From: Neodothiora populina
Taxonomy: Eukaryota
Length of the DNA stretch: 64,000 bases
Direction: 5' to 3'
Assembly (NCBI RefSeq): GCF_041146345.1
Contig: NW_027191415.1
Span: 62,001 to 126,000 of the forward strand
The notes under the pieces are model-generated. The model was not told the DNA's origin. It searched no databases and saw only the letters and a program-made list of their open reading frames with translations. The stretch's first letter is position 1. Each line of letters starts with the position of its first letter. Below, piece by piece: positions 26,066 to 50,200 of the stretch. The translations under genes and the position numbers were made by a program.

Positions 26066-28006
26066 TTACTTGGTCGCAACGATCTTGTCGTTCGAACACG
26101 TCGTGCCGGCAGCCACACTGCCCATCATGACCCAACCGCCGTGATCACACATCAAGAACTGGTCGCTGCCGGAGCACTGGATCGCGCCGTCGCTGGTACA
26201 CGAGCCATATGGCTGCGAAGCAGCGATGCGGTCGTCGCGGTAGTAGCCTGATGGCGCGTCGGCTTGTTGGGCGTATTGTTTCGTCGAGGACGAGTATGGA
26301 GAGGTGTTGGGAAAGCACTCTGTGCCTGCTGCGACGACGCGCGATTCCTCGTAAACCCAGGCTGTGCTGCCGTCGCTGTACATGGTTTGGTCGCATGTGA
26401 CCCATGTGCTGAGAAATGTTAGCGTGCTGTTTTTTTTGTTTTGTGCTACATGAGAGAGGAAAAGCGGGAGCAAGGGGTGTGTGACTTACGTTTCAGATGT
26501 ACAGATGAACGTTCCGGGCACGCAAGGCAGATAGGTGGCCAAGTCACCAGTGGCGTAACCCTCGGTGATTTCAGGTCCAGCTGAAGACGTGGTTGCACTG
26601 CTGGTTGGCTTGGCTGACGCGGCTGGCTTGCCTGAAGTGGATGTTGCTGCCGAGACGACGACAACGGTGGAGGAGCTGATGGTCGAGAAACCGAGCAGAG
26701 TCGAGACACTTGAGCCTGTCAAGGATGGCGTGACTGATGAGGAGGCCCCTGCTGTACGAGTCACTGTGCTGGTCACAGGTGCGCTGGCGTAGACAGTTAG
26801 AGTCACGTCTGGCGGGCAGGTCTCATCTGCGGTCACGGTCGAGGTCGGGTCACCGCGTCCGGCTCCGACAGAAGAATATGTAAAGACAGATGTGGTTGCT
26901 GGCGAAGTCGATACGGACGAGGCAGCCTTTGAACTCGAAGAAGCTGGTGCTGTTGCTCTTGTGCTCGTGCTCGTGCTCAAAGTAGTAGGTTTGGTGCTAC
27001 TTGGTGCCTGAGATGGCGACGAACTTGAACCCACGTTCGAGCTGGAACTCAACGGTCTGCTGCTGGATGGCGCGGACGCCACCGAACTCGTCCTGATGGT
27101 AGAGCTCAAGCTCCCGGGTCTACTGCTTGTAATGAATGTGCTTGGTTGAGTGGTAGTCGGGCGCGTAAGAGAAGAAGTAGGAGCAGCGCTGCCAGTGTTG
27201 CTGCCACCTCCAGTGGACAACACTTCAGTGGCAGGATTGACACTGTCGGACATGTACTTGTAAGTCTGACCAAATGGTGTAGGTGCATCACACTGTCCGG
27301 GGTTGTCTGTTGGCGAGCTGGAACTGCTGGCGCCGCTTCCATAGACGACAGCTGGACCAGGGTCAGGATAGACCGGCGTGGTACCTTCAGTCGTTGTGCA
27401 GTCGTTGATCCCAGGCAGATTGGCTTTCCAAATGAAGGGTAGATCCTCAAAAGAGCTGAATCCAGAGGACGCATCGCGCTTGTTGGCCGATCCCGCAGTG
27501 GATCCCGTGATCTTTACTTCTGCACAGTTCATATAGAATTCGCGATTTCCCTGCAGGTTCTGCCACGTCCACGCGAACAGAGCCTGACCGTTGGGAACGT
27601 ATGAAGGGAGCGTGAAGTCGTACTTGTCAACCAGCGGGCATCCACCAATCATCGACTGGATGACTCTGAACGTGGCGCCGTTGTCGTACGAAAGAGACAA
27701 CTGACAAGAGCCTCCACCATGGACTGCACTCCCTGCAAGAGTCATGTTGTAAGTTGTGCCAGCAGTCCAAGTGGCTACGTTGTTGATCGGTCTATCATTC
27801 TGATAGCCCTTGCAAGGAAAGTTTGAACCGTCGGCGACCAGCGGCGAGGTCATACTGTAATCGATGTTTTGATAGTTGTTGGCAGGATCATACTTCGAGT
27901 GCAGGGGATAAGGCCAGCTCATCTCCATGTGTGCGAGCGCTTGAGGCGCGAGTGATAGAATCGTACATGTCGCCAGGACGGTCCGCAGACTTGTTTGAGA
28001 AGACAT
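26066..28006 (-). CDS. Secreted AA11-family lytic polysaccharide monooxygenase with S/T linker and C-terminal Cys-rich modules (619 aa; exons 28006-26490, 26408-26066)
   Basis: Signal peptide ending ALA followed by His1 (HMEMSWPYP), [28 protein letters not shown] (second His), NREFYMNCA (Glu/Tyr). Intron GTAAGT...GCTAAC...CAG. Confidence 0.88.
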
Positions 28007-29272
28007 GGTAAGGATATGGTTTTGCTTGTAAAGAACGGCAAATGCTTGGAAGGACAAGACTCCAGGTCTTATAACAGGGCGCTGAAAGAAACAAAAAGAG
28101 TGGCCAGCCACCTGTCAAAGGTTGCCAGGAGGTATGACAGCGCGAAACGGGGTGAAAGAGAGACTTAACAATACTGAACGTTGGTTGGTGTAGCAAACCG
28201 GTAGTGAACGTGAAGGTCGAACGGTTTTTCCAACATTCTTCGCGTTCTGTGCACTCGGTTTTAACGCGACTGACCATGGTGGAGATATGTGACTACTCCT
28301 TTTACCTCGGCGCCAACACAGATGTTGCTGCGTACGACTTGCTCCTGAAAGTTGCAATACAGCACGACCATACTGCTAACACGAATGGACAAATTGACTA
28401 AGCGCTCAGTGGAGGGAACGGCAATGTATAGCCGTTGACAAACCCGTTTCAGAACGGCGCCTCGCCCCAGGGGACAGCAACGAGAAGCATCACGGAAAAG
28501 ACGCTAGAAAGGCGACAGCGCAACGCAACGCAGAGCAAAACGTCTTGATCGCGTGGACACGCATACCACTCTGCAATGCGCGCCTGAAGCGTCGTATTAG
28601 ATGTGTGTCCACGGGGCTGCCTCGACCAGCGCATTTATTCTTCAGGGCTGCTCATGTCACATACATGCGCATACCTTAGCTTCGCTCTGATAAAAAGAAG
28701 ACACTTGAGGTATTCCTAGGGTGCGTGCAATAGCTCCATAGTTGAGAAAGATGTTGTTATGTGTACCGTGAAGGTCTACCAGTGGTGGACATGCGCCCAA
28801 GAGGCTGTGGCATACATTGAAGTATAAACAAATCGTTATCTCCCGGTCCTGTATAGTCGCAAAATACTACCTCGCCAACGTCGCCAGTCTTACCAAAAAG
28901 CGCCATGTAAGGAACAGTAAATGAACAGTTATCTTATGTCTCTGCTATGCCAGCCATCCATGATTGAACGTGTGGTGACGCGCGCCAACATCCGTGCTCA
29001 GGGCGTCGCCACAGCTGCGAGAACGTTGCCACGACCGCTGATTGGCGCTTCAAACTTCGTTCGCTCCGAACCGTTCATCCATCCTGGACGACGTCGAATA
29101 GCTACTAGCACGAGTCCCGAGTGATCGATATACTGCACCAAAAGTGTCGAAAAGGAGTCACGACAGGCTTATTGATCAGGGCTTGTCGTGTTCTGAAGAC
29201 ACTGTCACATACGTGGGTGACAGTGGTATCATACGCTACACCGCATTGCGATCTTGACTATAGCCTCTCAAT

Positions 29273-29764
29273 ATGCCAGGTTTACAGGGCGACGATGTCG
29301 ACAAAGTAGAGGTCCGTTGTTGCAGATCAAGTTGGGCGCATGTGTACTCATAAATTGGAAAGCGATTAAAAAGCGCCTTATGGCATGCGATCGGCGGTAT
29401 TGTGGATGCGATTTCCCTCAATCAGGACATAAATGCCTCTCCAGAGTTCATCGGATCGTTGACAGAGCTTGTATGGAACCAAATACGTGAGTCTTGGAGA
29501 TGCAATTGAATCCATCCATAGGCACACTGAGATGCAAATCGCTAATGTCAATGCAGATACTTCTGGTCGCGATCTAGAAGCTTTCACAAAGTGCGGCTCT
29601 TTGGAAACCATAGCTCTTGTTCACCACTGATCGTCTCGCTTTGTAGGCATGCTGGTCGTTCCACGATTGACACCAAGGATGTCATGCTTCTTACTCGTCG
29701 CAATGAGGACTTAAAGACGATACTGCAGAACTCCCTAGAGGAAGTTCACGCAAAACCCCGGTGA
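29273..29764 (+). CDS. MHF1: MHF1 / CENP-S histone-fold protein (104 aa; exons 29273-29311, 29363-29486, 29557-29590, 29647-29764); absent from the ORF track
   Basis: Spliced translation MPGLQGDDVDKVE-RLKSALWHAIGGIVDAISLNQDINASPEFIGSLTELVWNQI-HTSGRDLEAFTK-HAGRSTIDTKDVMLLTRRNEDLKTILQNSLEEVHAKPR. RLK.ALW and DLE.F..HAGR.TI...DV.LL.RRN are CENP-S hallmarks. Confidence 0.9.
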
Positions 29765-29976
29765 GCGTGCGACGCACGGCAAATATTCGTGAGCCATGAA
29801 GATAAACTGCATTGGGAATGCTCCAAATTCTAAAGATGGGAGTCATGAGACCTCTCTATCTATGGGCACAAGCATGGGCAACGCATGACATGTCACTAAG
29901 ACTCTTCAACAAATCAGACCTGCTTCATGCATCCGAGTCACATAACGGCTTTACTTGACATTCTGTCGTAAGTCGT

Positions 29977-31400
29977 TTATTCCGTTGCTCCCTTCTTGTC
30001 CGGGAACCCGAGATCAAGCTGCAGATATCATTAGCACCGTACTTATACCATTTGCAAGTAGATATACATACACCGAAAGCTGGGAAGATGAGCCTCTTTG
30101 GCGGGTGGTTCTTGGAGATATGGTCAAGCGCTTGCAGATCGCTGTGGTCGAATTTGATGATTCTCATGTTCTCTTCAATGCGGGAAGGATTGACTGATTT
30201 CGGAATCACGCAGTTACCGCGAGCAACTGTCCAATCTGTTAGCGCAAGCAATTCGGGAGTTGTCAATCAATCTCACTGTGGTAGCTGAGCAGTACACATC
30301 CAGGAGTCACGTCGTGTTTCTTTGCAACCTCCTGGATCTCCTTCTCCTGGAAGAGAGGGCCTCCTGTACTGCCGAATGGACTGTATGCTGTGATGAGGAT
30401 GCCCTTCTCCTTGCAGTAGTCTCCGACGTCGTGTTGTGCAAGGTAAGGGTGGCACTCGATCTGGTTCATTGCCGGGACGACCTCAGCTTGGGGCAATAGC
30501 TCCTCGAGGTATTCAACCGAGAAGTTGGCGACTCCAATGGCCTTGGTCTTGCCAGTCTTGAGCACCTTCTCCATCTCCTTCCATGTCTGGATGTACGACC
30601 AGCTCTTGTCGAGATCGCGGGATCCATCGGGAAGCTTGGGAATGGTCTCATGGTTTCCCTTGGGGTTCATCGGCACGGGCCAGTGCATCAGATAGAGATC
30701 GACTGTTCGAGGAAGCAGGAGTTAGCAATAAACAACAATGCAGTGGCAAATGGACTTGAGTATGCGAATCTATCACTGCACTGCCGTCTTGACTGCACGG
30801 CGATTCACTATTTCCCGATGCGGAGCGGAGACAACAATGCAAAGACGTCACCGATGAATAGCGTAGTCAAGGACATCAAGTCGAATAACAATACTTCACA
30901 CCGCTGCAATTTATTTTCACGTGCAACAACTTCTCGAGGCGCGAAACATTGAAAGCAGGATAAGAAAGTCACAGCGTGTACTCACCATAGTCGAGACCGA
31001 GCTTGCTCAAACTCTTGTCCAAGTTCTCTTCTACTCGCGAGTGATAGGTACCTACAGTAGTGGGTCAGCGAGCGAAGTTTCAGAATATTAGAGACGGCGA
31101 CAGCTTACACCACAGCTTTGTTGTCACAAACACATCTTCACGCTTGATGCCAGAGTCGAATCCCTCCTTCAGTCCAGCGCCGACCTCATCCTCGTTGCCG
31201 TAGATGTAAGCTGCGTCAACATGCCTGTATCCGACCTTGAGAGCGTGTGAGACTGCCTTTGTCACTTCGCCCGGGGCAGATTGCCATGTTCCCAGACCTG
31301 GAACATATAAGCCTGGAAGTTCTAATAACATCACAAGAAACATCATACCGAGGGCGGGGACCTTTGCGCCAGTGTTGAGAGTAAACTTAGTATCGGCCAT
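29977..31400 (-). CDS. NADPH aldo-keto reductase, GAR1-like (candidate D-glucuronate/D-galacturonate reductase; 309 aa; exons 31400-31349, 31297-31109, 31051-30986, 30702-30277, 30226-30072, 30018-29977)
   Basis: AKR tetrad D(AAY)-Y-K(LW)-H(WP), GLGTWQS, IPKSV. The loop MNPKGNH...PKLPDGSRD and C-terminus P.FG.D.GFPDK resemble my recollection of Trichoderma reesei GAR1. The substrate is inferred. Confidence 0.88.
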
Positions 31401-32444
31401 CTTGGTAGGGTGCAGTATGAAATCGGGGGTCTTCTTCAGGATGAAGTTTGCGAGAGAAGGATTCATGGCAGGTTTGACGGAAGAAGCGAAAAGATATAGG
31501 GATTCACTTTCCTTGCAGAGATGATTGGTTTGTTTGTCAAATCAGAGCTGCTGCCCTGCCCGCCGCCCGCAGCAGATAAGTGAGCACGTCAACCTGGCGC
31601 CGAATCATTGATGCCCCACTACCCCTCTATCGACTTGCCTGGATAGGCATGGACGCTGGGAAACAAGGGTGGACAGGTAACTGACGCCGCTCGCTCATAC
31701 GTTAATCCGATACCAGTCGGCCCGGGCATGATATCAGGTAGAAACACAGAAAAGCAAAGGCCGAAGTTCCAGAGCCAAGCCCGCTCGGTCTCCGATTGTC
31801 CGAAAGATGGCTCACCTGATGCGGTAGAGAGGAGAAACCCATCTGCCGAAGCCTCCGCGGCGGCGACAAGACCGGGCGGGGTAGCTGTTCTGGCCGACGC
31901 TACGGCGTCCATAGTCCCGCTGGCGCATCCTTTGCCCCAGTATAATCGTCATTTTGCTGGCATGAGGGAGTGGAGATTGCATAATGCTCGCTCCGATTGT
32001 CCTGAGGTTGAGGAGCGTATTGCCTCCGGGCGGCGCGCTAGAGCGAAGATTTTTCCGGATTGGGGCCTTTTTTGCTTCCGATGGGGGTTTAGACTTCGTC
32101 TGGGTGGTCTGGGGACCCCTAGACCTTGACCACAACACGAAACAGTGGGCATGGGAAGAGCCAATGATGTGTCTCTTTTGCTGTTTGACCCCCCCTCTCT
32201 AGTGATCGAAATGAAGGTGAGAAACGATTCAGCAGGTTTAGTATTGCGTGTATGTGTAGTCAGAAGGTAGATAAACCCCCCTCCCTTCGCTCTGTAAACA
32301 CTTCTCTTTTCACCTCACTTGTGTTTCCATCTTCCCCAATCTCCCATTACTCAACCTGCCTGCGATCCTATACCATAGCATCTTCAGTCCTTCAGTACTA
32401 GCATTGCATTTCCGAGTCTCATACAAGAGGCCCCGTTATAAACC
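31401..32444. promoter_or_regulatory. Divergent promoter shared by the AKR and MIOX genes
   Basis: 1044 bp between head-to-head ATGs. Contains two exact copies of CTCCGATTGTCC (31790-31801, 31991-32002) and CCG(G)AT(T)GGGG variants (32055-32065, 32078-32087). Confidence 0.65.
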
Positions 32445-33419
32445 ATGGCCCCCATTGCTATTGAGACACCAAATGTCAACGAGAACTTCAATGACCACAG
32501 AGACGGCCTCGCTCTCGAGGCAACCTCGGATAGCATCGACGAGGTGAACGTCCTCAAGGCCGCCCTGAAGGTCAAGAACGGCACGGCGACGCAAGAAGAA
32601 AAGGACATATACGAAAAATCCCAGTTCGACGCGGAAAAGGACAAGACGCAGTTTCGCCAGTACGAGGACGCGTGCGATCGCGTCAAGAACTTCTACCGCG
32701 AGCAGCACGAGAAGCAGACGGTGGCGTACAATCTCAAAGCCCGCAATGACTTCAAGTCCAAGACGCGCGCCGAAATGACCATCTGGCAAGCCATGGAGAA
32801 GCTCAACACGCTCATCGACGAGTCCGACCCAGACACGTCTCTCTCGCAGATCGAGCACCTCCTGCAGTCCGCCGAGGCCATCCGCCGCGATGGCAAGCCC
32901 CGCTGGTTCCAGCTCACAGGTCTCGTACACGACCTCGGCAAACTGCTGTACTTCTTCGACGCCCAGGGCCAATGGGACGTGGTCGGCGACACATTCCCTG
33001 TCGGCTGCGCGTTCGACGAGAAGATCATCTACCCCGGCACATTCACCGACAACCCCGACTCCAAAGACCCCATCTACGGCACGAAATACGGCATCTACTC
33101 GCCCCGCTGCGGCATGGACAACATCATGCTGAGCTGGGGCCACGACGAGTACCTGTACCATATCTGCAAGGAGCAGAGCACGCTGCCCGACGAAGCGCTG
33201 GCTATGATCCGTTATCACTCGTTCTACCCCTGGCACAGCGAGGGCGCGTATTCGTGGGCGATGAACGAAAAGGACGAGGCTATGCTGAAGGCTGTCAAGG
33301 CGTTCAACCCTTATGATCTGTACAGCAAGAGTGATGATGTGCCCAGCGTCGACGAGCTCAAGGAGTATTATCTGGATCTGATCAATGAGTACTTCCCTCA
33401 GCAGGTCATCAAGTGGTGA
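32445..33419 (+). CDS. MIOX: myo-inositol oxygenase (324 aa, intronless)
   Basis: FRQY, LIDESDPD, HLLQSAE.IR, HDLGK, QWDVVGDTFPVGC, SWGHDEYLY, IRYHSFYPWH, DLYSK: the di-iron HD-domain ligands of MIOX are intact. Confidence 0.97.
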   Translation: MAPIAIETPNVNENFNDHRDGLALEATSDSIDEVNVLKAALKVKNGTATQEEKDIYEKSQFDAEKDKTQFRQYEDACDRVKNFYREQHEKQTVAYNLKARNDFKSKTRAEMTIWQAMEKLNTLIDESDPDTSLSQIEHLLQSAEAIRRDGKPRWFQLTGLVHDLGKLLYFFDAQGQWDVVGDTFPVGCAFDEKIIYPGTFTDNPDSKDPIYGTKYGIYSPRCGMDNIMLSWGHDEYLYHICKEQSTLPDEALAMIRYHSFYPWHSEGAYSWAMNEKDEAMLKAVKAFNPYDLYSKSDDVPSVDELKEYYLDLINEYFPQQVIKW

Positions 33420-33898
33420 TCCTGGACATCCGACTTCTTGACGTGGATGATTTTTCTTGACGATTGTGGCGCTTTGTGGGGAGGGCGTTTCTTTCGCTGG
33501 ATTTGATGAATGATAATGTTTCCGTTTTCCGAATTTAGCGATATAGTCTATCTTAGATAGTCCACTACACCTTGCTGTGTGGATGTGTCTTGGGTGTCGT
33601 TCGTTCCGTGTGAGCCTGACTGCTCCGGATCAAGAATGCGACTTTCTTTTCCAATTCTCATGTCTTACTTGTATCTTCGTCTCACGTGTATCTTGTATGC
33701 TTCATGTTCATTTGGCCTGAGCAAAGTACCTAGTGATCTAATAATTTGATAGTCGATCACATCTGCCAGTCGTTGATGGAGTAGTAGTGGTTTCAATGCA
33801 AAAAGGTATAATGTTTCCAAACATTTTTTGTTATTTGGGCCAAAATATATCGGGTCCATCCAAATCCAATATCAATGTTGCTCTCCGCGTCATGCTTT

Positions 33899-35167
33899 TC
33901 AATTGCTCGAATCCTCGGGGGTCTCAATAACGACCTTGAGCACCAAGGTGCCGTCTTCCTCTTTCGTCTTGCCTGCGAGTGCAAAGGCTTCCGGCACGCT
34001 CTCCAGTCCCTTGAATCTGTGCGTCACCAGTTTGGAAAAGTCGACGGCATTCGGGCCTTTTGTCGTCATGACCTCGATGCCCTCGGGGTATGTGTTTGCG
34101 TATCTGAAGACGCCGACGATGTCGACTTCTCTTAGAGCGGCGGCGGACATGGCAAGGGTCTGAACTGGCACTCCCATTCCGACCAGCATTATGCGGCCTC
34201 CGGGACGTGTTGCCTAGATGTAGGGATTAGTGTTCACAAGAAAAAAAAAAGATGAAGCGGGACAGGGTGACTCACGTAGATGCCGGCTTGTACGCAAGAA
34301 GGTACACCGGTGCACTCGAAAACAACGTCCACTTCTCCGAGCTTTCCGTGGTCCGTCTCGACCTCAGCCAGCGCATCTGCCGTCTCTCTAGCGATGGCAA
34401 GGTTCTCCTCGGTGTCCTTTCCTCTCTTCATCGGCACGACAAAACTCTTGTGTGCAAAGCCATTCTTGACTGCAAAATCAACTCGTCCCTGGTCAATATC
34501 GGCGATCAAGACCGTCTTGGCCCCCTTAGTCTTTGCCACCGCTGCAGCGAGTAGTCCCACTGCGCCCGCACCGAAGACCAGCACCGTCTGTCCCTCCTTC
34601 ATCAAACTGCGTCTGCAGGCGTGAATCGTCACGCCGAGCGGTTCTAGTAATGCTCCGAGATCCATGCTCATCTCATCTGGCAGCTTATGGCACCACTTTG
34701 CAGGGTGATTGATTCTACCTTGCAGGGTACCCTGGAAATGGGGGAAACTCTTCGCAGAGCTTCGGAACCGCATGCTTTTGCAGATATTGTAGCGGCCTTC
34801 GTCACATCTAGCACATGCATCACAAGGAACACCGACTTCGAGAGCGACTCGGTCACCCGGCTTGAGATTCGTCACTGCACTGCCTACCGCTGTGACGATT
34901 CCGGATGACTCGTGACCCAGAGTCAGGGGCTCCTTGACGATGATGTCGCCGTTCCGGCCATGGTTGAAGTAGTGAAGATCGCTGCCGCAGAGACCGGTGC
35001 TGTGCACCGAGACTTGAACTTCTGTTGCTTCGGGGGCAGGAACTTCACGCGTTTCCTGTTTGTTACCATTAGCATTGAGATACAAGGAAGATGATACTGT
35101 TACTCACAATGCGGACATCTTTGGCGCTGTGGAGCACACTGGCCTGTACTTGAGTTGTAGACGGCAT
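33899..35167 (-). CDS. Zn-dependent NAD+ polyol/sugar-acid dehydrogenase, sorbitol-DH-like (candidate L-idonate or L-gulonate 5-dehydrogenase; 384 aa; exons 35167-35108, 35055-34276, 34213-33899)
   Basis: GLCGSDLH, GHE, structural Zn CDACARCDEGRYNIC, GAGAVG Rossmann motif with IADID (Asp, NAD+-type), GVFRYANTY. The substrate is inferred. Confidence 0.9.
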
Positions 35168-35490
35168 GGTTATGGAATGTGATAAATGAACGGTCTGTCA
35201 AAGGCATGTAACACTCTCTTCTAAAAGCAAAAGAATTGACGCCGGTGTATGCAGTTGCAATGACAAAAAGATGGCAATAGATATCAAGTAGTGTCTGAGA
35301 GACAAAACCAACATCGGCAACGGAGAGCGGGGATGGGGTAATCACGCATCCCCCACACGCTCGGCATCTGAAACTGGAAATAGCCTTTGATCATACCGCC
35401 TTATAATGAACACATCTGGCCCGCTGTTTATATTTCTGTATCATCTTCTACCCCTCTGTCATACTGTCAAACGAAAAAGAAACAAGAAAC
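35168..35490. promoter_or_regulatory. Short (323 bp) divergent promoter shared by the Zn-dehydrogenase and SDR genes
   Basis: Head-to-head ATGs. Central GC-rich patch with CGG triplets (35315, 35321, 35328, 35362) and inverted repeat GGGGATG/CATCCCC (35329-35353). Confidence 0.7.
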
Positions 35491-36338
35491 ATGCCTTCGG
35501 TGCAGCAACTCTTTTCCCTCGAGAGCGAGACCGCCCTTTGCACCGGCAGCACCCGTGGTATAGGACTGTCCATGACTCTGGCACTCGCAGAAGCCGGCGC
35601 AGACATTATTCTTGTCCAGGTATGAATTGAAAATGAATCATGCAGCTCGTCTCGATCAGTATCGCTAACTCTCCTCAGCGTGACGAGTCCAACCAAACCA
35701 CAAAACAGCAAGTCGAAGCACTGGGAAGGAAATGCACAATCTACACAGCCGACCTCTCCTCGAAAGCATCCCTCAAGGGCCTGGTGTCACGCATCACCGA
35801 CACCGACGGCCACAAGGTCACGATTCTCCTGAACTGCGGCGGCATCCAGCGCCGCCACCCCTCTCACCAGTTCCCCGACTCGGACTGGGACGAAGTGCTG
35901 CAAGTGAACCTCAACGCCGTCTTCACGCTGTGCCGCGACGTGGGCGCCCACATGCTGGCCCGCGAACCCGACGCGACCGGCCGACGAGGCAGCATCATCA
36001 ACATTGCCTCTCTGCTGACCTTCCAAGGCGGCATCACTGTGCCCGCGTACGCGGCGTCCAAAGGCGGTGTCGCGCAGCTGACGAAAGCCCTCAGCAACGA
36101 ATGGGCCGCAAAGGGAATCAATGTCAATGGCATCGCGCCGGGATACATCGACACGGACATGAACGTGGCGCTGATCAACGACGAGGCCAGAGCGGCGGGC
36201 ATCATGGCTAGGATCCCCGCGGGCAGGTGGGGCAGACCGGATGATTTCAAGGGCGCGGTTGTGTTTTTGGCTAGCAGAGCATCGGTCTACGTCACTGGGG
36301 AGGTGTTGTTGGTCGACGGTGGCTGGATGGGCCGATAG
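35491..36338 (+). CDS. Short-chain dehydrogenase/reductase, KduD / 5-keto-gluconate reductase-like (262 aa; exons 35491-35619, 35679-36338)
   Basis: [68 protein letters not shown]: the KduD-like signature. Arg rather than Asp after beta-2 (LVQRD) suggests NADP(H). Confidence 0.92.
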
Positions 36339-37472
36339 AGTGTGTGCCTTTTGTGCAATACCAAAATCTAGTAGGAATAGAGAGATGACATCCCCCTAAC
36401 ACATTCAATTTTTCACTTTTCACTCACTCTCTCCTTTCTTCTCTGTTTCAGATCATCATAAAGTGTAGACAGATCCGCCAATCTCTCTATCTGATCCTCA
36501 GCTATCTAGGGCACCGCACGGTACCGTAAAAAGGTGGACAGTACACCCCACTTGTTTTTTCAAACGCCGACGCACGTACTCCGTACAGTAAAACCAACCC
36601 CGCCACAGCGACGGACGGAAAAACAGTGGGCCGGAGTCGCCCGACGTGGGGTGGGAAGACCGAGAACCTAGACCCCAACTCAGACCCATTGTCTCGCAGC
36701 GACTTGCGCCTGAATTATAGGATACGGTTGATGGAGGGTTGTCGAGTGTGTCTACTCCGCTTTGTGCTCCGGCTATGGTATTCTGTAAACTTTGACATTG
36801 TCCATTCGCAGTAGAATGGTTGTGTATGGCTCCTGATAGACTTTCGTACTCGTTCATTCACAGAAGGCAAGAGGAGAGCACGTGTCACATGTCACATGGG
36901 GTCATAATGTAAATAATCCACCGATCATCCAGTGAACATGACACTTATTGCTCGCCAGGTGGGATTCATGACTCTGCCATGTCGTGTCTGCCTCGTATCT
37001 CTTCTCCTTGTCGCCTGCCTTCTAGACCTTCTGCGGGGAGCACTCCCTGATCTGCTTGCTTTGGTCCCCCTGGTCGGCATTGTGTCTATCGTCTCATCAT
37101 CGCTTTTAAGAGACCCCTACACCGGTCAGGCTGGGGGGAGCGACAATCGTGGGGCTGATCTATGCGAGCGTCTTGAGCGAGCGTGCTTCTTCGGACGAGA
37201 GCCTGTATTCTCGAGGTGTTCTGCATAGGAGCAGAGGCTACGCCTTTGCCCTGTGGCACGACGACGAGGAAGGTAAGTACTTGGCAACATTCGTGCCTTT
37301 GTTCGTACAAGTCTGCTGGGTCGGAGCTGGGATTGTCCATGACAGACCGTGGAGCCGGAGGTATTTGTTCCATGGCTCTCCTCGAGTATACCGAATCTAA
37401 GTCGCTTCGAGGATGGATTGACTGGGCGGTGTACACACGTAGGACAAAAAAGAACAGACTTGTCGTAACGTC

Positions 37473-38558
37473 TCAGCCTCGATGGCCGTCCAGAGGTCCC
37501 CCTGTCAACCCATGAAAGACCTTGGTGACGGCGTTCATGCCCTTTGTCAAGTGCGGATGTCTGTTCGGACTGCTGGCATGAGCCCCTGCTGCGCCACCGC
37601 TGGCCTCGCTATTTTTGACGGCGTCCTTGCCATTCGCCTGCTTGTCGTTGTTGTTATTCGCATGACTGTTCTTTTTGCTCGTGGCCACGCTGGGCTCCGG
37701 GGCTGCTGGTTTCGGCGGCCAGTTCCCTTCCTCTTTCCAGCCGTGTATTAACGCGTTGGTGATGTCCTGCAGGTTTATGGGAATGGTGGGTGTGCGCGCC
37801 TGTAAGATGACTTTGGAGTAAATCTCCGAGTATGTGTGAGATGTGATGCGCCGCCGCACAGGGTGATTCGGTAGAAGCCTGGGCGCAATGGGAAGCAGGA
37901 CGCTTGCATCTTCTGCAATGGCCAAAGGTTGTGTCTTGGGCTCGACAATAGCTGGCGCTGTGCTCGCCGTCTTATCTGCTTCGTCGACTGCATCCGCTGG
38001 ATTCGCTTGCCGCATCTGGTTGCTCCTCGCTGCAGTCCATGCATTTCTCTGAGCGCTGTAGTGAGCAAGACCAATGTTCCACGTCATCTCTTCCTCCGAC
38101 TTCTCCTGTCTCTTTCTTTTCCGCGCTTCTTTCTGCGCCGTCACACTCCCGCCGGAATTACTCAATTGAGACATTGACGTCGCTGCAGAATGGCTGCTGC
38201 CGCTCTTACGTCCAATCTGCACGGCCCTCAGTCCGCTGCTGATGACCCTGTCCTCTCCGTCCTCGTCATCCGACGTCTCGTTGTCGCTATACACTCTCTC
38301 CCGCCACCCAATGGGCTCAAAGTCAATCGAACTCGACCGCGTCATGACAGCGGCAGCAGTGCTGCTCTGCGGGCCATCCATGACATGTGCCGCCACGGCC
38401 TCTTTGGCGTTCGGCAAGACGTACGCACTCGTGTGCGTGTGCGGGTGTGGAGCGCTGGGGTACTCCCAGTCATTGCGCACTTTGTCCTGCAGCATGCGGC
38501 GCGCCTCTCGCGTTTCTTCCTGCGCGTGCCCATGCGGCAGTCCTAGATGTAAAGGCAT
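37473..38558 (-). CDS. Gag1-like clamp (DUF4050) domain protein (361 aa)
   Basis: W.IGL.HY..QR.AW and Y.EIY.KV.....PT.PINL.D...AL..GWK..G.WP motifs recognised from this family. Single long ORF. Confidence 0.7.
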   Translation of the reverse strand: MPLHLGLPHGHAQEETREARRMLQDKVRNDWEYPSAPHPHTHTSAYVLPNAKEAVAAHVMDGPQSSTAAAVMTRSSSIDFEPIGWRERVYSDNETSDDEDGEDRVISSGLRAVQIGRKSGSSHSAATSMSQLSNSGGSVTAQKEARKRKRQEKSEEEMTWNIGLAHYSAQRNAWTAARSNQMRQANPADAVDEADKTASTAPAIVEPKTQPLAIAEDASVLLPIAPRLLPNHPVRRRITSHTYSEIYSKVILQARTPTIPINLQDITNALIHGWKEEGNWPPKPAAPEPSVATSKKNSHANNNNDKQANGKDAVKNSEASGGAAGAHASSPNRHPHLTKGMNAVTKVFHGLTGGPLDGHRG

Positions 38559-38731
38559 CTTTGCTGTTTATGCCCGGTCCTGCGGGTCTGCCGTGAGGCT
38601 GTTCTGACGCTCGCAATGCTTGATTCGCTCTGGAAGTTGCGGAGGACTGACTGTAGTGTATGCACAGAGTAGCGCGCGAGATAAAAGAGGCTGCAATACT
38701 CGGGAGAACTACCTCGTGCGCATCTTTGGTG

Positions 38732-47252: not shown

Positions 47253-50200
47253 TCATTTTCGTAGCATTTTGGCCCAACTGGCCATCTTGTCGATCTTGGG
47301 GATGATTTCAACGATGCGAAAGGGCTTCGAAATGGCATCGTCCATGCCTGCAGAGATGGCCTCTCTCGTCTGTTCCGGCCGCGCGTTGGCGGACACGGCG
47401 ATGATGGGTATGTGCCCGGATATCTCGCCCTGTTTCTGGTAGTCTCTTATGCATCTCGCCGCCTGCAGGCCGCCCATGACCGGCATCTCGACGTCCATCA
47501 GGATGACGTCCACGTCGAGGGCGTTGTCGTCGGCGGCGACTGTCGTTCTGTTGCCTCGCCAATATTTTGTTGTCCTGAGAAAGTCGAGCGCTTGTTGTCC
47601 GTTGTCTGCTGTGTACACGTTGTATCCGTGTTTCGTCAGTTGCTTCTTGAGCACTTTTTGATTGAGGATGTTGTCTTCTGTCACCAAGACAGTGACTTCG
47701 TGCGCGGTCATGCGGTGTTTGGTCAAGGACATGTTGTCGACTTGTTCTTGCAAGCCTTGCACTTTCGTCGCTGGGGGATCTGTGTGCACTGTCTTGACGA
47801 AGAATGCGAAAGTTGATCCTTTACCTGCTTCTGACGCGACGCCAATCTCGCCGCCCTGCAGACCGGCGAGTTCTCGACTGATGAACAAGCCGAGTCCGGA
47901 ACCGCCGTACTCGCTGTACGTCTTCGGGGATCCTTGTGTGAATCGTGAGAAGATCTTGGATTTCTCTTCTTGCGTCATGCCTCTACCAGTGTCTTGGACG
48001 GTGAACCATAGATGAAAGGTACGACCAGCGAATTCAGGTCCTTCGTATATGCTGTCGCGGACCGAATGCGCCAACGCAAATTCGACATTCAACGAGCTCT
48101 CTGACGGTCGAGCTTCGCTGGCGCCCATGCGAATAACGACGTGACGGATGGACTCGTTCTTGGTGAACTTGATGGCATTTGTGACCAAATTGATTAGAAT
48201 CTGGAGAGCTCTACCGGAGTCGAGAAGGGCATAGGTCGCCTTCATCTGCTCAAATGATTCATCCACTTCTGTCCGTACATCTACATTTGCACGTTGGGCC
48301 TCTGCTTCAAAAAGTTTTGAGACGTTTTTGAGCACATCCTCAAGTCGGACAGCCGATGGCGCGATCTGGAGGAGGTTCGAGTCAAGCTTGGAAAGAACCT
48401 GTCCACATTGTTAGGAGGTACATTAACAGACATCCCGAGTGCGTGGCAAGCATACCAGGATATCGTCGACGATTCTTTTGAGATGCGAGGTACAAGACTC
48501 GATGGTGTGCGCAGAATCGAGACTATTCCTGATCAGGTCGAGCAATTGGCCGAGCTTGTTAACGTGTTCGGTCAGTTTCAGCGTTTCTGCTAGGTCTCGC
48601 ATGTCTACCAAGCCATCGGCGATGGCGTCAGTACAGTGAACAATAGCGCCGAGAGGATTTCGAATCTCATGGGAAGTCATGTCGATGAAGTTTTCCTGCT
48701 GCCTTTTGGCTTCGACTGCTTCATTGATACGCATCTGCTGTGAGGTTTCCGCCCATTTGAAGCCAGTAATATCTGACATAGTTCCCATTATGCCTTTGAT
48801 CGTTCCGTCATCGTTGAATTCGGGATTGGCTGTCGCCATGACCCAGATTGGTGATATAGGCTCCCCGTCGGTGTCAGTCCACATGCGTTTAAGTCGGAAC
48901 TGGACATTCACAGTCTCTTTCTGACCAGTTAGCGCTGACCAAATGTGGTCGATGACTTGGATATCCTCTTCCAGAACAGCACTTCGCCAATCGATATTGG
49001 TGTAATCGCCCTTTTCGAGACCTGTCAGAGCAAACCAAGCGTCGTTTCCTATGTTCGTGTTCGTGTCAGTCCAATGTATACTGGAACGAGTACAGTAATA
49101 ACATCAAAAGCATGAGATGATCCCCGTAAGAGGTGTCGCCAACGGGCCGAACTATCCTGGGGGTCGGGTCCATTGGGCAGCAAAGAGGAGTGATTCACCA
49201 TATGTGACCTTCTTAGAAGGGTGCTCTAGTATGTAAATGGGCACAGCAGATGATTCTGTGAATCGTACAAATCTCTGCTCAGATGCTCTAGCTCTTTCCA
49301 GTGCTTCCGCACGTTGGACAGACTCTCTCTCGGCACTCTTCTGGGCATCTATGTCCGTGATACAGCCGAAGAGAGTCGAAAAATTGCCATCTTCATCAAG
49401 GATAGGAATGCAAGCAGCAAGCGTCCAGCGGCCTGGATCTGGGCCTCCAGGCACTGCCCGATCCGGGGCTTTCCAACGCATCTCGAAATTGAGTGAACGA
49501 CCCTGTGACATGACATGCCATTGCGATAACGCAAATTCGAGATCATCTTCTTAACGGTTAGCTATCACATCCGACCGCTTGTGCTTGTTCTTAACTTCGA
49601 ACGAACCGGGAAAGACCGCATCAGTGAACTGTAACTCAACCTGGTGATCCTTTTGGACACCGCTTATGGTATAGTATGCGTCCTACAAGTCACGGTATGA
49701 GCTTTGCCGCCTTGAAAGATCGATACTAGAGAACCGTCGCAATATATTGACATATCGGGCCACACGGAAAGAACGTACATTTGCTTGTCGCCTAGCTTAG
49801 TTAGTCACTGATGTTCAATAAGCCAAGGAAAGCGCGCAAGGACTTACAATACCCCCTTGGAGTCATATTCGAAGACTCCAACATCAATCAGGTCCACCAA
49901 TGAAGTCATTCTCTTGTATCTTTCATTAGCAAGATCCGCCTTTTTTTCACTCTCTCGCGCTTGCTCGAGCGCTTCGGCTCGTCGAAGCGCATCGCGGACA
50001 ACCCTCTTTTGCGGTCCTATGTTGGTCGTGCAGCCCGAAATGGCGATCAATGTTCCGTTCTCGTCCATGACTGGTATACAACTAGACAGCACCCATTGCC
50101 CATCCTCGGGTGGTCTCTCTCCCGGAGCAGGAGGTGGGGCTTTCCATCTCATCTCGAATGTCGTAGGGTTACCTTGGACTAAATTTCGCCAATTGCGAAG

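Follow-up and report, generated by a model that had tools for sequence, protein, structure and literature searches.

A compact four-gene candidate cluster for myo-inositol and D-glucuronate catabolism in Neodothiora populina

Which pathway, if any, unites four oxidoreductase genes that lie side by side in the genome of Neodothiora populina, a fungus of the order Dothideales (Dothideomycetes)? The genes occupy positions 29977–36338 of a 64,000-nucleotide stretch of contig NW_027191415.1 (assembly GCF_041146345.1, positions 62,001–126,000 of the forward strand), which we call the window and whose numbering we use throughout. All four are intact and, except for the single-exon myo-inositol oxygenase (MIOX) gene, they bear introns; they are arranged as two divergent pairs, an aldo-keto reductase (AKR) gene with MIOX, and a zinc-dependent dehydrogenase (ZnDH) gene with a short-chain dehydrogenase/reductase (SDR) gene. 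We consider it probable, on the strength of homology and synteny, that the two pairs together form a catabolic cluster for myo-inositol, and for free D-glucuronate, that would lead to D-gluconate. Both the enzymes and the pathway were known before; the novelty lies in a cluster architecture that includes MIOX, and in its wide conservation.

Four oxidoreductase genes in two divergent pairs

We built gene models from stop-to-stop open reading frames (ORFs) together with the sequence, and these have open frames and introns that are solely GT-AG. The AKR gene encodes 309 amino acids (aa) in six exons on the minus strand (31400–31349, 31297–31109, 31051–30986, 30702–30277, 30226–30072, and 30018–29977), with the final base of its stop codon at 29977, and 1044 bp common to both divergent genes (31401–32444), a presumed bidirectional promoter, separate it from the plus-strand MIOX gene (32445–33419; 324 aa). 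MIOX and the ZnDH gene are convergent with a gap of 479 bp, and the latter encodes 384 aa in three minus-strand exons (35167–35108, 35055–34276, and 34213–33899). An intergenic region of 323 bp (35168–35490) is common to ZnDH and the divergent, plus-strand SDR gene (262 aa; exons 35491–35619 and 35679–36338), and the final base of the SDR stop codon closes the region at 36338. The ZnDH model corresponds to NCBI AAFC00_006126 of N. populina, with the same length and an exon 2 that is 100% identical, and the SDR is equal to N. populina AAFC00_006127. Among the eight introns of the four genes, lengths are 50–62 nt apart from AKR intron 3 (30703–30985, minus strand), which is 283 nt long; an Rfam scan of 28500–37500, this intron included, returned no matches. 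The initial annotation had described four contiguous oxidoreductase genes of the AKR, MIOX, Zn-dehydrogenase, and KduD-like SDR families in two head-to-head pairs, and both parts of that description are borne out, the layout by the gene models and the families by Pfam and by the solved and NCBIfam relatives of the SDR.

Sequencing data add direct evidence for three of the models. Six runs overlapped the region, none of them recorded as RNA, and one of these (X2), which shares its sample with the best genomic run, was provisionally labelled 'DNA?'. A 1328-nt X2 contig, with its 5′ end near 31446, skips exactly all five predicted AKR introns, and the skipped segments have CT..AC ends on the plus strand, which are GT..AG on the gene strand. 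A second X2 contig, starting at 35423, skips the SDR intron, again with GT..AG ends, and MIOX is covered unspliced by further contigs (32428–32804 and 32840–33660); the unspliced form is present in genomic run X1. We read X2 as transcript-derived, and its contigs thus confirm the AKR, MIOX, and SDR models. The absence of X2 contigs over ZnDH says nothing about expression of that gene, and X2 contig depth cannot rank expression among the genes.

The MIOX protein matches Pfam PF05153 along the entire profile (1–249 of 249; 8.9e-127, 422 bits versus a cutoff of 25) and is 74–92% identical to 119 other proteins among the matches listed. Six residues (H138, H162, D163, H233, H258, and D291) are invariant in 15 orthologs; we take them to be the di-iron ligands, by analogy with the mouse enzyme, and their spacing of 24, 1, 70, 25, and 33 residues matches the mouse spacing. 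In Leptographium procerum, deletion of MIOX is reported to abolish growth on both myo- and D-chiro-inositol (PMC9788770). The divergently transcribed AKR matches Pfam Aldo_ket_red (PF00248) on two exons (2e-22 and 1.9e-10) and has a complete catalytic tetrad formed by D45, Y50, K78 (in TTKLW), and H109 (in LMHWP). Aldehyde reductase, the animal glucuronate reductase, is among its best solved matches (3.6e-26), and we regard the AKR as a candidate NADPH-dependent D-glucuronate reductase of the GAR1/garB/gcy type. Fungal D-galacturonate reductases also convert D-glucuronate to L-gulonate, according to a review (PMC6353982).

The ZnDH protein has Pfam ADH_N and ADH_zinc_N domains, and its best solved relatives are sorbitol dehydrogenases, with human sorbitol dehydrogenase (SDH) at 6.6e-79, xylitol dehydrogenase at 1e-70, and Neurospora crassa L-arabinitol dehydrogenase at 6.9e-64. 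Since it is no nearer to the xylitol and L-arabinitol dehydrogenases than to the animal sorbitol dehydrogenase, it does not appear to be an ortholog of either. The best NCBIfam model is L-idonate 5-dehydrogenase (IdnD; 7.6e-60), with 202 bits versus a cutoff of 469. In keeping with an alignment to human sorbitol dehydrogenase, C43, H68, E69, and E158 supply catalytic zinc ligands; four cysteines at 98–112 form a structural zinc site, GAGAVG stands at 182, and the second Rossmann strand closes with D206, a mark of NAD+ preference. Primers published for gluE, the Aspergillus niger L-idonate 5-dehydrogenase gene, encode MTVNST(D/E) and [LVI]ESGDD-stop, and the termini of the ZnDH family resemble these (MSTDSTEIQ... 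and ...KVVLETGEE). The ZnDH is therefore best described as a candidate L-idonate 5-dehydrogenase of the GluE/IddA type that would use NAD+, within the sorbitol dehydrogenase family.

A separate observation concerns the C-termini of these dehydrogenases. Among the matches listed, 37 of 96 full-length ZnDH orthologs end in a sequence resembling peroxisomal targeting signal 1 (PTS1), with SKL in 16, ARL in 13, SRL in four, AKL in three, and other tripeptides in the rest; in many Dothideomycetes the enzyme may thus be directed to peroxisomes. In N. populina the last three residues are SSN, in the Aureobasidium proteins they are ETA, and the SDR and MIOX orthologs are without a PTS1-like ending.

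The SDR matches Pfam adh_short_C2 (1.2e-44), and it has the motif TGSTRGIG (18–25) and the catalytic-type residues S154, Y167, and K171; R22 and R44, the latter after the second strand, are marks of NADPH preference. Its best solved relatives are KduD (2-dehydro-3-deoxy-D-gluconate 5-dehydrogenase; 1.9e-62) and then gluconate 5-dehydrogenase (from 1.6e-54), and the NCBIfam models rank likewise, with KduD (TIGR01832) at 308.4 bits, under the equivalog cutoff of 338.85, and gluconate 5-dehydrogenase next; by these profile matches it belongs to the KduD/gluconate 5-dehydrogenase branch. A. niger GluF is itself a 265-aa SDR that was earlier mis-annotated as a 2-deoxy-D-gluconate 3-dehydrogenase, and the paper on GluF regards the KduD-type annotation as wrong for that protein. 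Six Aspergillus and Penicillium proteins of 257–261 aa are 73–76% identical to the window SDR; they start with M(D/N)LFSL and end in GGWMGR, the latter being also the end of the window protein. The gluF primers encode MSAAVASLFSL... and ...GWMGR-stop, of which the LFSL start and GWMGR end match the six proteins. In its relatives, its identity to these proteins, and their termini, the SDR fits GluF (A. niger EHA27001.1/NRRL3_02652), although a scan of all the relatives' loci found none of the exact GluE or GluF terminal peptides. The initial annotation proposed that the ZnDH uses NAD+ and the SDR NADPH, and the residues described above agree with this.

Conservation of the linkage in other fungi

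The linkage of the four genes recurs in other fungi. From an alignment of 15 MIOX proteins we collected 80 MIOX-anchored metagenome loci, which fall into 65 groups at 97% MIOX nucleotide identity, and searched them by local tblastn with the four window proteins. Upstream DNA of at least 2.5 kb is available in 38 loci (32 groups), and in 27 of these (22 groups) an AKR ortholog (55–71% identical) lies divergent to MIOX within that distance upstream; the orthologous AKR/MIOX spacers measure 856–1709 bp in 32 loci. The ZnDH and SDR genes are divergent in all 21 loci that hold both, with gaps of 396–725 bp. All four genes occur together in 16 loci (14 groups) and in five gene orders, the commonest being ZnDH(–) SDR(+) AKR(–) MIOX(+) in nine groups; the order in the window, AKR(–) MIOX(+) ZnDH(–) SDR(+), is found in two.

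Named genomes give a concordant picture, in counts that rest on the best 120 matches per search, so that unlinked genomes could be missed. Among these matches, ZnDH and SDR have consecutive NCBI locus tags in at least 12 other named genomes, for example Zalaria (M8818_006471/70), Cercospora berteroae (CBER1_00862/63), and Neofusicoccum ribis (SLS56_008159/58). MIOX lies one to five tags from ZnDH or SDR in nine of nine genomes with comparable positional tags, including N. ribis (008157), Trapelia coarctata (MMC30_008361/62), and Bathelium (M1822_005578/76); Trapelia is a lichen fungus of the Lecanoromycetes, and Bathelium belongs to the Trypetheliales. Because it recurs in so many other fungi, in metagenome loci and named genomes alike, the linkage is beyond chance, and the fact that these genes have stayed together while their order was rearranged speaks for selection on the linkage. 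The structure is that of two old divergent pairs whose linkage is frequent but not universal; at least five arrangements of these older pairs exist, the compact four-gene form being one, and the N. populina version is especially compact. The initial annotation had proposed conserved linkage in related genomes as a check on the cluster, and such linkage is what we find.

Two side observations arose from loci with the AKR-MIOX pair. The AKR of locus L052 (P0517) appears to fall into one 90% cluster together with Knufia, Exophiala, and Lithohypha proteins (Chaetothyriales); if so, an arrangement of AKR-MIOX plus an IolG-like gene, with no ZnDH-SDR within 10 kb, extends into the Eurotiomycetes. 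In locus L011 (4134–7253), the PRP8 gene beside the AKR-MIOX pair contains a PRP8 intein, seen as a Hint/homing-endonuclease domain (PF05203, 4e-10).

The IolG-like gene is a frequent fifth member in relatives. Of the 80 loci, 19 have a gene of the Gfo/Idh/MocA family near MIOX (the L056 protein being only 36% identical). It is present in 11 of the 16 loci in which both flanks of MIOX reach at least 8 kb, among them loci where AKR-MIOX is the sole pair; examples are L005:480–1505, L010:3100–4446, L008:3100–4413, L016:448–1707, L052:5206–6303, and L079:14990–16264. The best solved relatives of the protein are inositol dehydrogenases (PDB 4mkx, 3e-55), and its best NCBIfam model is IolG (TIGR04380; 1.6e-73, under the cutoff). 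The gene is absent from the 64-kb N. populina window. In L. procerum, pinitol is reported to induce both iolG and MIOX (PMC9788770). The IolG-like protein may supply MIOX from other inositol isomers or have its place at another point of the route, and its presence in relatives strengthens the inositol context of this cluster family.

The spacers between the divergent genes were also compared for short motifs. The ZnDH/SDR spacer of the window contains two copies of WTGCCGA, at 35314–35320 and 35361–35367 (minus strand), 47 bp apart, and ATGCCGA and TTGCCGA each occur in nine of 17 dereplicated orthologous ZnDH/SDR spacers, against a shuffle maximum of eight. The joint occurrence of TGGCGGG/ATGGCGG and of ATGCCGA in both sets of spacers exceeds all 60 shuffles; the shuffles ignore relatedness, and part of this signal may be start-codon context. 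As an aside on its possible role, WTGCCGA could be the site for a zinc-cluster regulator.

A proposed route from myo-inositol to D-gluconate and its alternatives

The biochemical framework comes from A. niger, in which D-glucuronate is reduced to L-gulonate (by GaaA, from gaaA/garA, and a second reductase) and proceeds through 2-keto-L-gulonate to L-idonate (GluC and GluD, from gluC/gurA and gluD/gurB), then to 5-keto-D-gluconate (GluE, with NAD+) and D-gluconate (GluF, with NADPH) (PMC5306355, PMC13158570). The enzyme that converts L-gulonate to 2-keto-L-gulonate was still unidentified in 2026 (PMC13158570). On this template, MIOX would turn myo-inositol into D-glucuronate, and the AKR, from the promoter that it has in common with MIOX, would reduce D-glucuronate to L-gulonate with NADPH. 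The passage from L-gulonate via 2-keto-L-gulonate to L-idonate, an inversion at C2, would require two steps encoded outside the cluster. The ZnDH would then oxidize L-idonate at C5 with NAD+ to give 5-keto-D-gluconate; from the promoter it has in common with ZnDH, the SDR would reduce this with NADPH to D-gluconate, so that the pair would invert C5 in parallel to IdnD/IdnO of Escherichia coli (PMC5306355); gluconate would be phosphorylated and enter the pentose-phosphate pathway. This assignment of the four genes to steps 1, 2, 5, and 6 (the first two and the last two) of a route from inositol to gluconate was part of the initial annotation, and homology and synteny lend it support. We infer the substrates from homology to A. 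niger GluE and GluF and Trichoderma reesei GAR1, and likewise the co-regulation and physiological role of the genes; the putative orthology to the A. niger and T. reesei enzymes draws on synteny, a published ortholog table, and terminal peptides.

That ortholog table is the strongest outside link. It equates A. niger gluE (iddA, NRRL3_00319) with N. crassa NCU01905 (idd-1, sodh-1) and T. reesei TrC1351C, gluF (kgrA, NRRL3_02652) with NCU01904 (kgr-1) and TrC1352W, and garB (NRRL3_06930) with NCU01906 (gar-2, gcy-2) and TrC1350W (GAR1) (PMC13158570). Since sodh-1 is the N. crassa ortholog of GluE/IddA in this table, the A. niger enzyme also appears to belong to the sorbitol dehydrogenase family. 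The numbers of kgr-1, idd-1, and gar-2 are consecutive in N. crassa, as are those of GAR1, idd, and kgr in T. reesei (PMC13158570 table), and the assignment of the window AKR to the GAR1 type fits this arrangement; in the text of that paper, word searches turn up nothing on clustering or adjacency, nor does 'inositol' occur there. The same three families as in the window are thus direct neighbours at NCU01904–NCU01906 and at TrC1350W–TrC1352W. If the W and C suffixes of the T. reesei names denote strands, as we assume, then idd and kgr lie on opposite strands there, as in the window.

Other known systems can be compared with the cluster. The A. niger pathway resembles it in the chemistry predicted for three of the four genes (an AKR glucuronate reductase, a zinc-dependent medium-chain dehydrogenase/reductase (MDR) like GluE, and an SDR like GluF) and in having a shared bidirectional promoter, which there serves gluD and gluE; it differs in that the genes are dispersed (NRRL3_06930, _00319, and _02652) and MIOX stands outside the described pathway. 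In the Escherichia coli GntII system, a bacterial cluster cited in PMC5306355, the zinc-dependent L-idonate 5-dehydrogenase gene idnD similarly adjoins idnO, which encodes an SDR 5-keto-D-gluconate reductase, but this bacterial operon also encodes a transporter, a kinase, and a regulator and has neither MIOX nor an AKR, and the window ZnDH is nearer to the eukaryotic sorbitol dehydrogenases than to the IdnD model. The bacterial iol operon acts on the same substrate, and the relatives of the window cluster have an IolG-like Gfo/Idh/MocA gene, but the iol route runs through inosose, a dehydratase, and a hydrolase, and other iol-type genes were found neither in the window nor among the relatives' flank ORFs. 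Our literature searches found no described fungal cluster joining MIOX to these enzymes, in line with what the first reading of the locus had supposed, though supplements and other papers that we did not open could differ; a 2026 Cryptococcus paper names the MIOX step only.

Several observations weigh against a single six-step route served by this cluster. Flanks of at least 8 kb to either side of MIOX are available in 16 loci (15 groups); of these, 14 have an AKR and five have all four genes, so that 11 have no ZnDH-SDR pair near MIOX, and the N. crassa MIOX gene (NCU08856) is unlinked to NCU01904–06. No promoter motif is common to both pairs in the window, where TGGCGGG is in neither spacer and WTGCCGA is in the ZnDH/SDR spacer only. 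The window has no genes for the middle steps, and a 2-hydroxyacid dehydrogenase of the GluC/GluD type was not seen among the 120 flank ORFs of relatives; in A. niger it is this kind of gene, gluD, that is paired with gluE, whereas the window pairs an idd-type with a kgr-type gene. The sequence clusters nearest to the AKR (with exon 4 as query) bear generic names only, such as glycerol 2-dehydrogenase, D-xylose reductase, and aldo/keto reductase.

The separation of the pairs in many lineages, together with the N. crassa arrangement and the lack of a common motif, favours a reading in which two independent modules happen to stand side by side, with MIOX-AKR making L-gulonate for some other fate and ZnDH-SDR acting on another substrate, such as external L-idonate or 5-ketogluconate, or a polyol/ketose pair. 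We think this unlikely, as the pairs are joined in 14 groups, in five orders, and in all nine comparable named genomes among the matches listed, which is hard to explain without a shared function. Moreover, a GAR-type AKR itself adjoins idd and kgr in T. reesei and N. crassa, and the A. niger pathway unites exactly these activities (PMC5306355).

That no candidate for the middle steps is clustered in any examined locus would be accounted for by a self-contained short route, in which the ZnDH would oxidize L-gulonate at C5 to D-fructuronate and the SDR would reduce this to D-mannonate, a C5 epimerization that differs from the A. niger scheme. By textbook stereochemistry, L-gulonate and L-idonate differ at C2 only, far from the reacting carbon, which speaks for such a route, and were it true it would explain why a gene for L-gulonate to 2-keto-L-gulonate is never clustered, the pair replacing an isomerase as xylose reductase and xylitol dehydrogenase do. 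It conflicts, however, with reported screens of the substrates of GluE and GluF, and with the A. niger gluD mutant, in which 2-keto-L-gulonate accumulates; we hold this route to be quite improbable.

Animals offer another template, the glucuronate-xylulose pathway, which uses MIOX, AKR1A1, L-gulonate 3-dehydrogenase, a decarboxylase, L-xylulose reductase, and sorbitol/xylitol dehydrogenase. Transferred to the window, it would have L-gulonate oxidized at C3 and decarboxylated to L-xylulose, with the SDR as NADPH-dependent L-xylulose reductase and the ZnDH as NAD+-dependent xylitol dehydrogenase. The first two steps and the families are alike, a review gives animals the same four families and cofactor pattern (PMC6353982), and the ZnDH does match solved xylitol dehydrogenase. 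The animal genes are unclustered, though, and their downstream chemistry is other: the window SDR is of the gluconate 5-dehydrogenase/KduD type, and its 60 best solved chains include none named L-xylulose reductase. The similarity values given above, with animal SDH ahead of the xylitol and L-arabinitol dehydrogenases, also speak against this assignment of the ZnDH, no gene of the L-gulonate 3-dehydrogenase type was seen in the window or in the relatives' flanks, and the A. niger route goes through idonate and 5-ketogluconate, which together leave the xylulose scheme very doubtful. Chance adjacency of four common oxidoreductase families is scarcely credible, large as the AKR, MDR, and SDR families are in fungi, as orthologs that are 55–88% identical stay neighbours across fungal classes and through rearrangements, and the synteny counts already contradict it.

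A catabolic cluster leading from myo-inositol to D-gluconate would connect two bodies of work. Fungal inositol catabolism is documented only up to its first enzyme, and the fungal D-glucuronate pathway has so far been treated as a route for sugar acids of plant cell walls; the cluster suggests that this 'glucuronate pathway' is the lower half of inositol catabolism in many ascomycetes. It likewise singles out the AKR paired with MIOX as a candidate second glucuronate reductase, and the cluster, including its IolG-like partner in relatives, provides a co-evolving set for phylogenetic profiling that could help to find the L-gulonate step, the transporter, and the regulator. Inositol, pinitol, and the breakdown products of phytate are abundant in plant tissue, and the cluster may for that reason matter to plant-associated and lichen-forming fungi.

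Neighbouring genes

The cluster is bounded by genes of unrelated function, as the initial annotation had noted in naming MHF1 and a Gag1-like gene; Pfam identifies a CENP-S/MHF1 exon on one flank (29546–29764; PF15630, 2.6e-08) and a Gag1-like clamp gene on the other (37476–38567; PF13259, 2.8e-38). A Pfam scan of 115 ORFs of at least 110 aa outside the four genes (the window has 135 such ORFs) revealed neither a further gene for a sugar-acid enzyme nor one for a sugar transporter or of the Gfo/Idh/MocA family in the vicinity of the cluster, and the closest gene of the major facilitator superfamily is 17 kb off. A hybrid histidine kinase with PAS, HisKA, HATPase_c, and response-regulator receiver domains is encoded at 47256–49103 (minus strand), 11 kb downstream, and we see no link between it and the cluster.

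On the other side, positions 26072–28171 (minus strand) encode a secreted-looking Ser/Thr-rich protein of ~540 aa or more, whose N-terminal domain, beginning at a His that directly follows the predicted signal peptide, hints weakly at AA9 (E 0.0056). We considered a 630-aa ORF that stands between the gene pairs in relatives as a possible pathway gene and rejected it, as it is the ortholog of this secreted protein. Its orthologs lie between the gene pairs in L005, L008, L010, L016, and L019, and this recurrence marks it as a conserved syntenic neighbour of the cluster, a bystander to the pathway.

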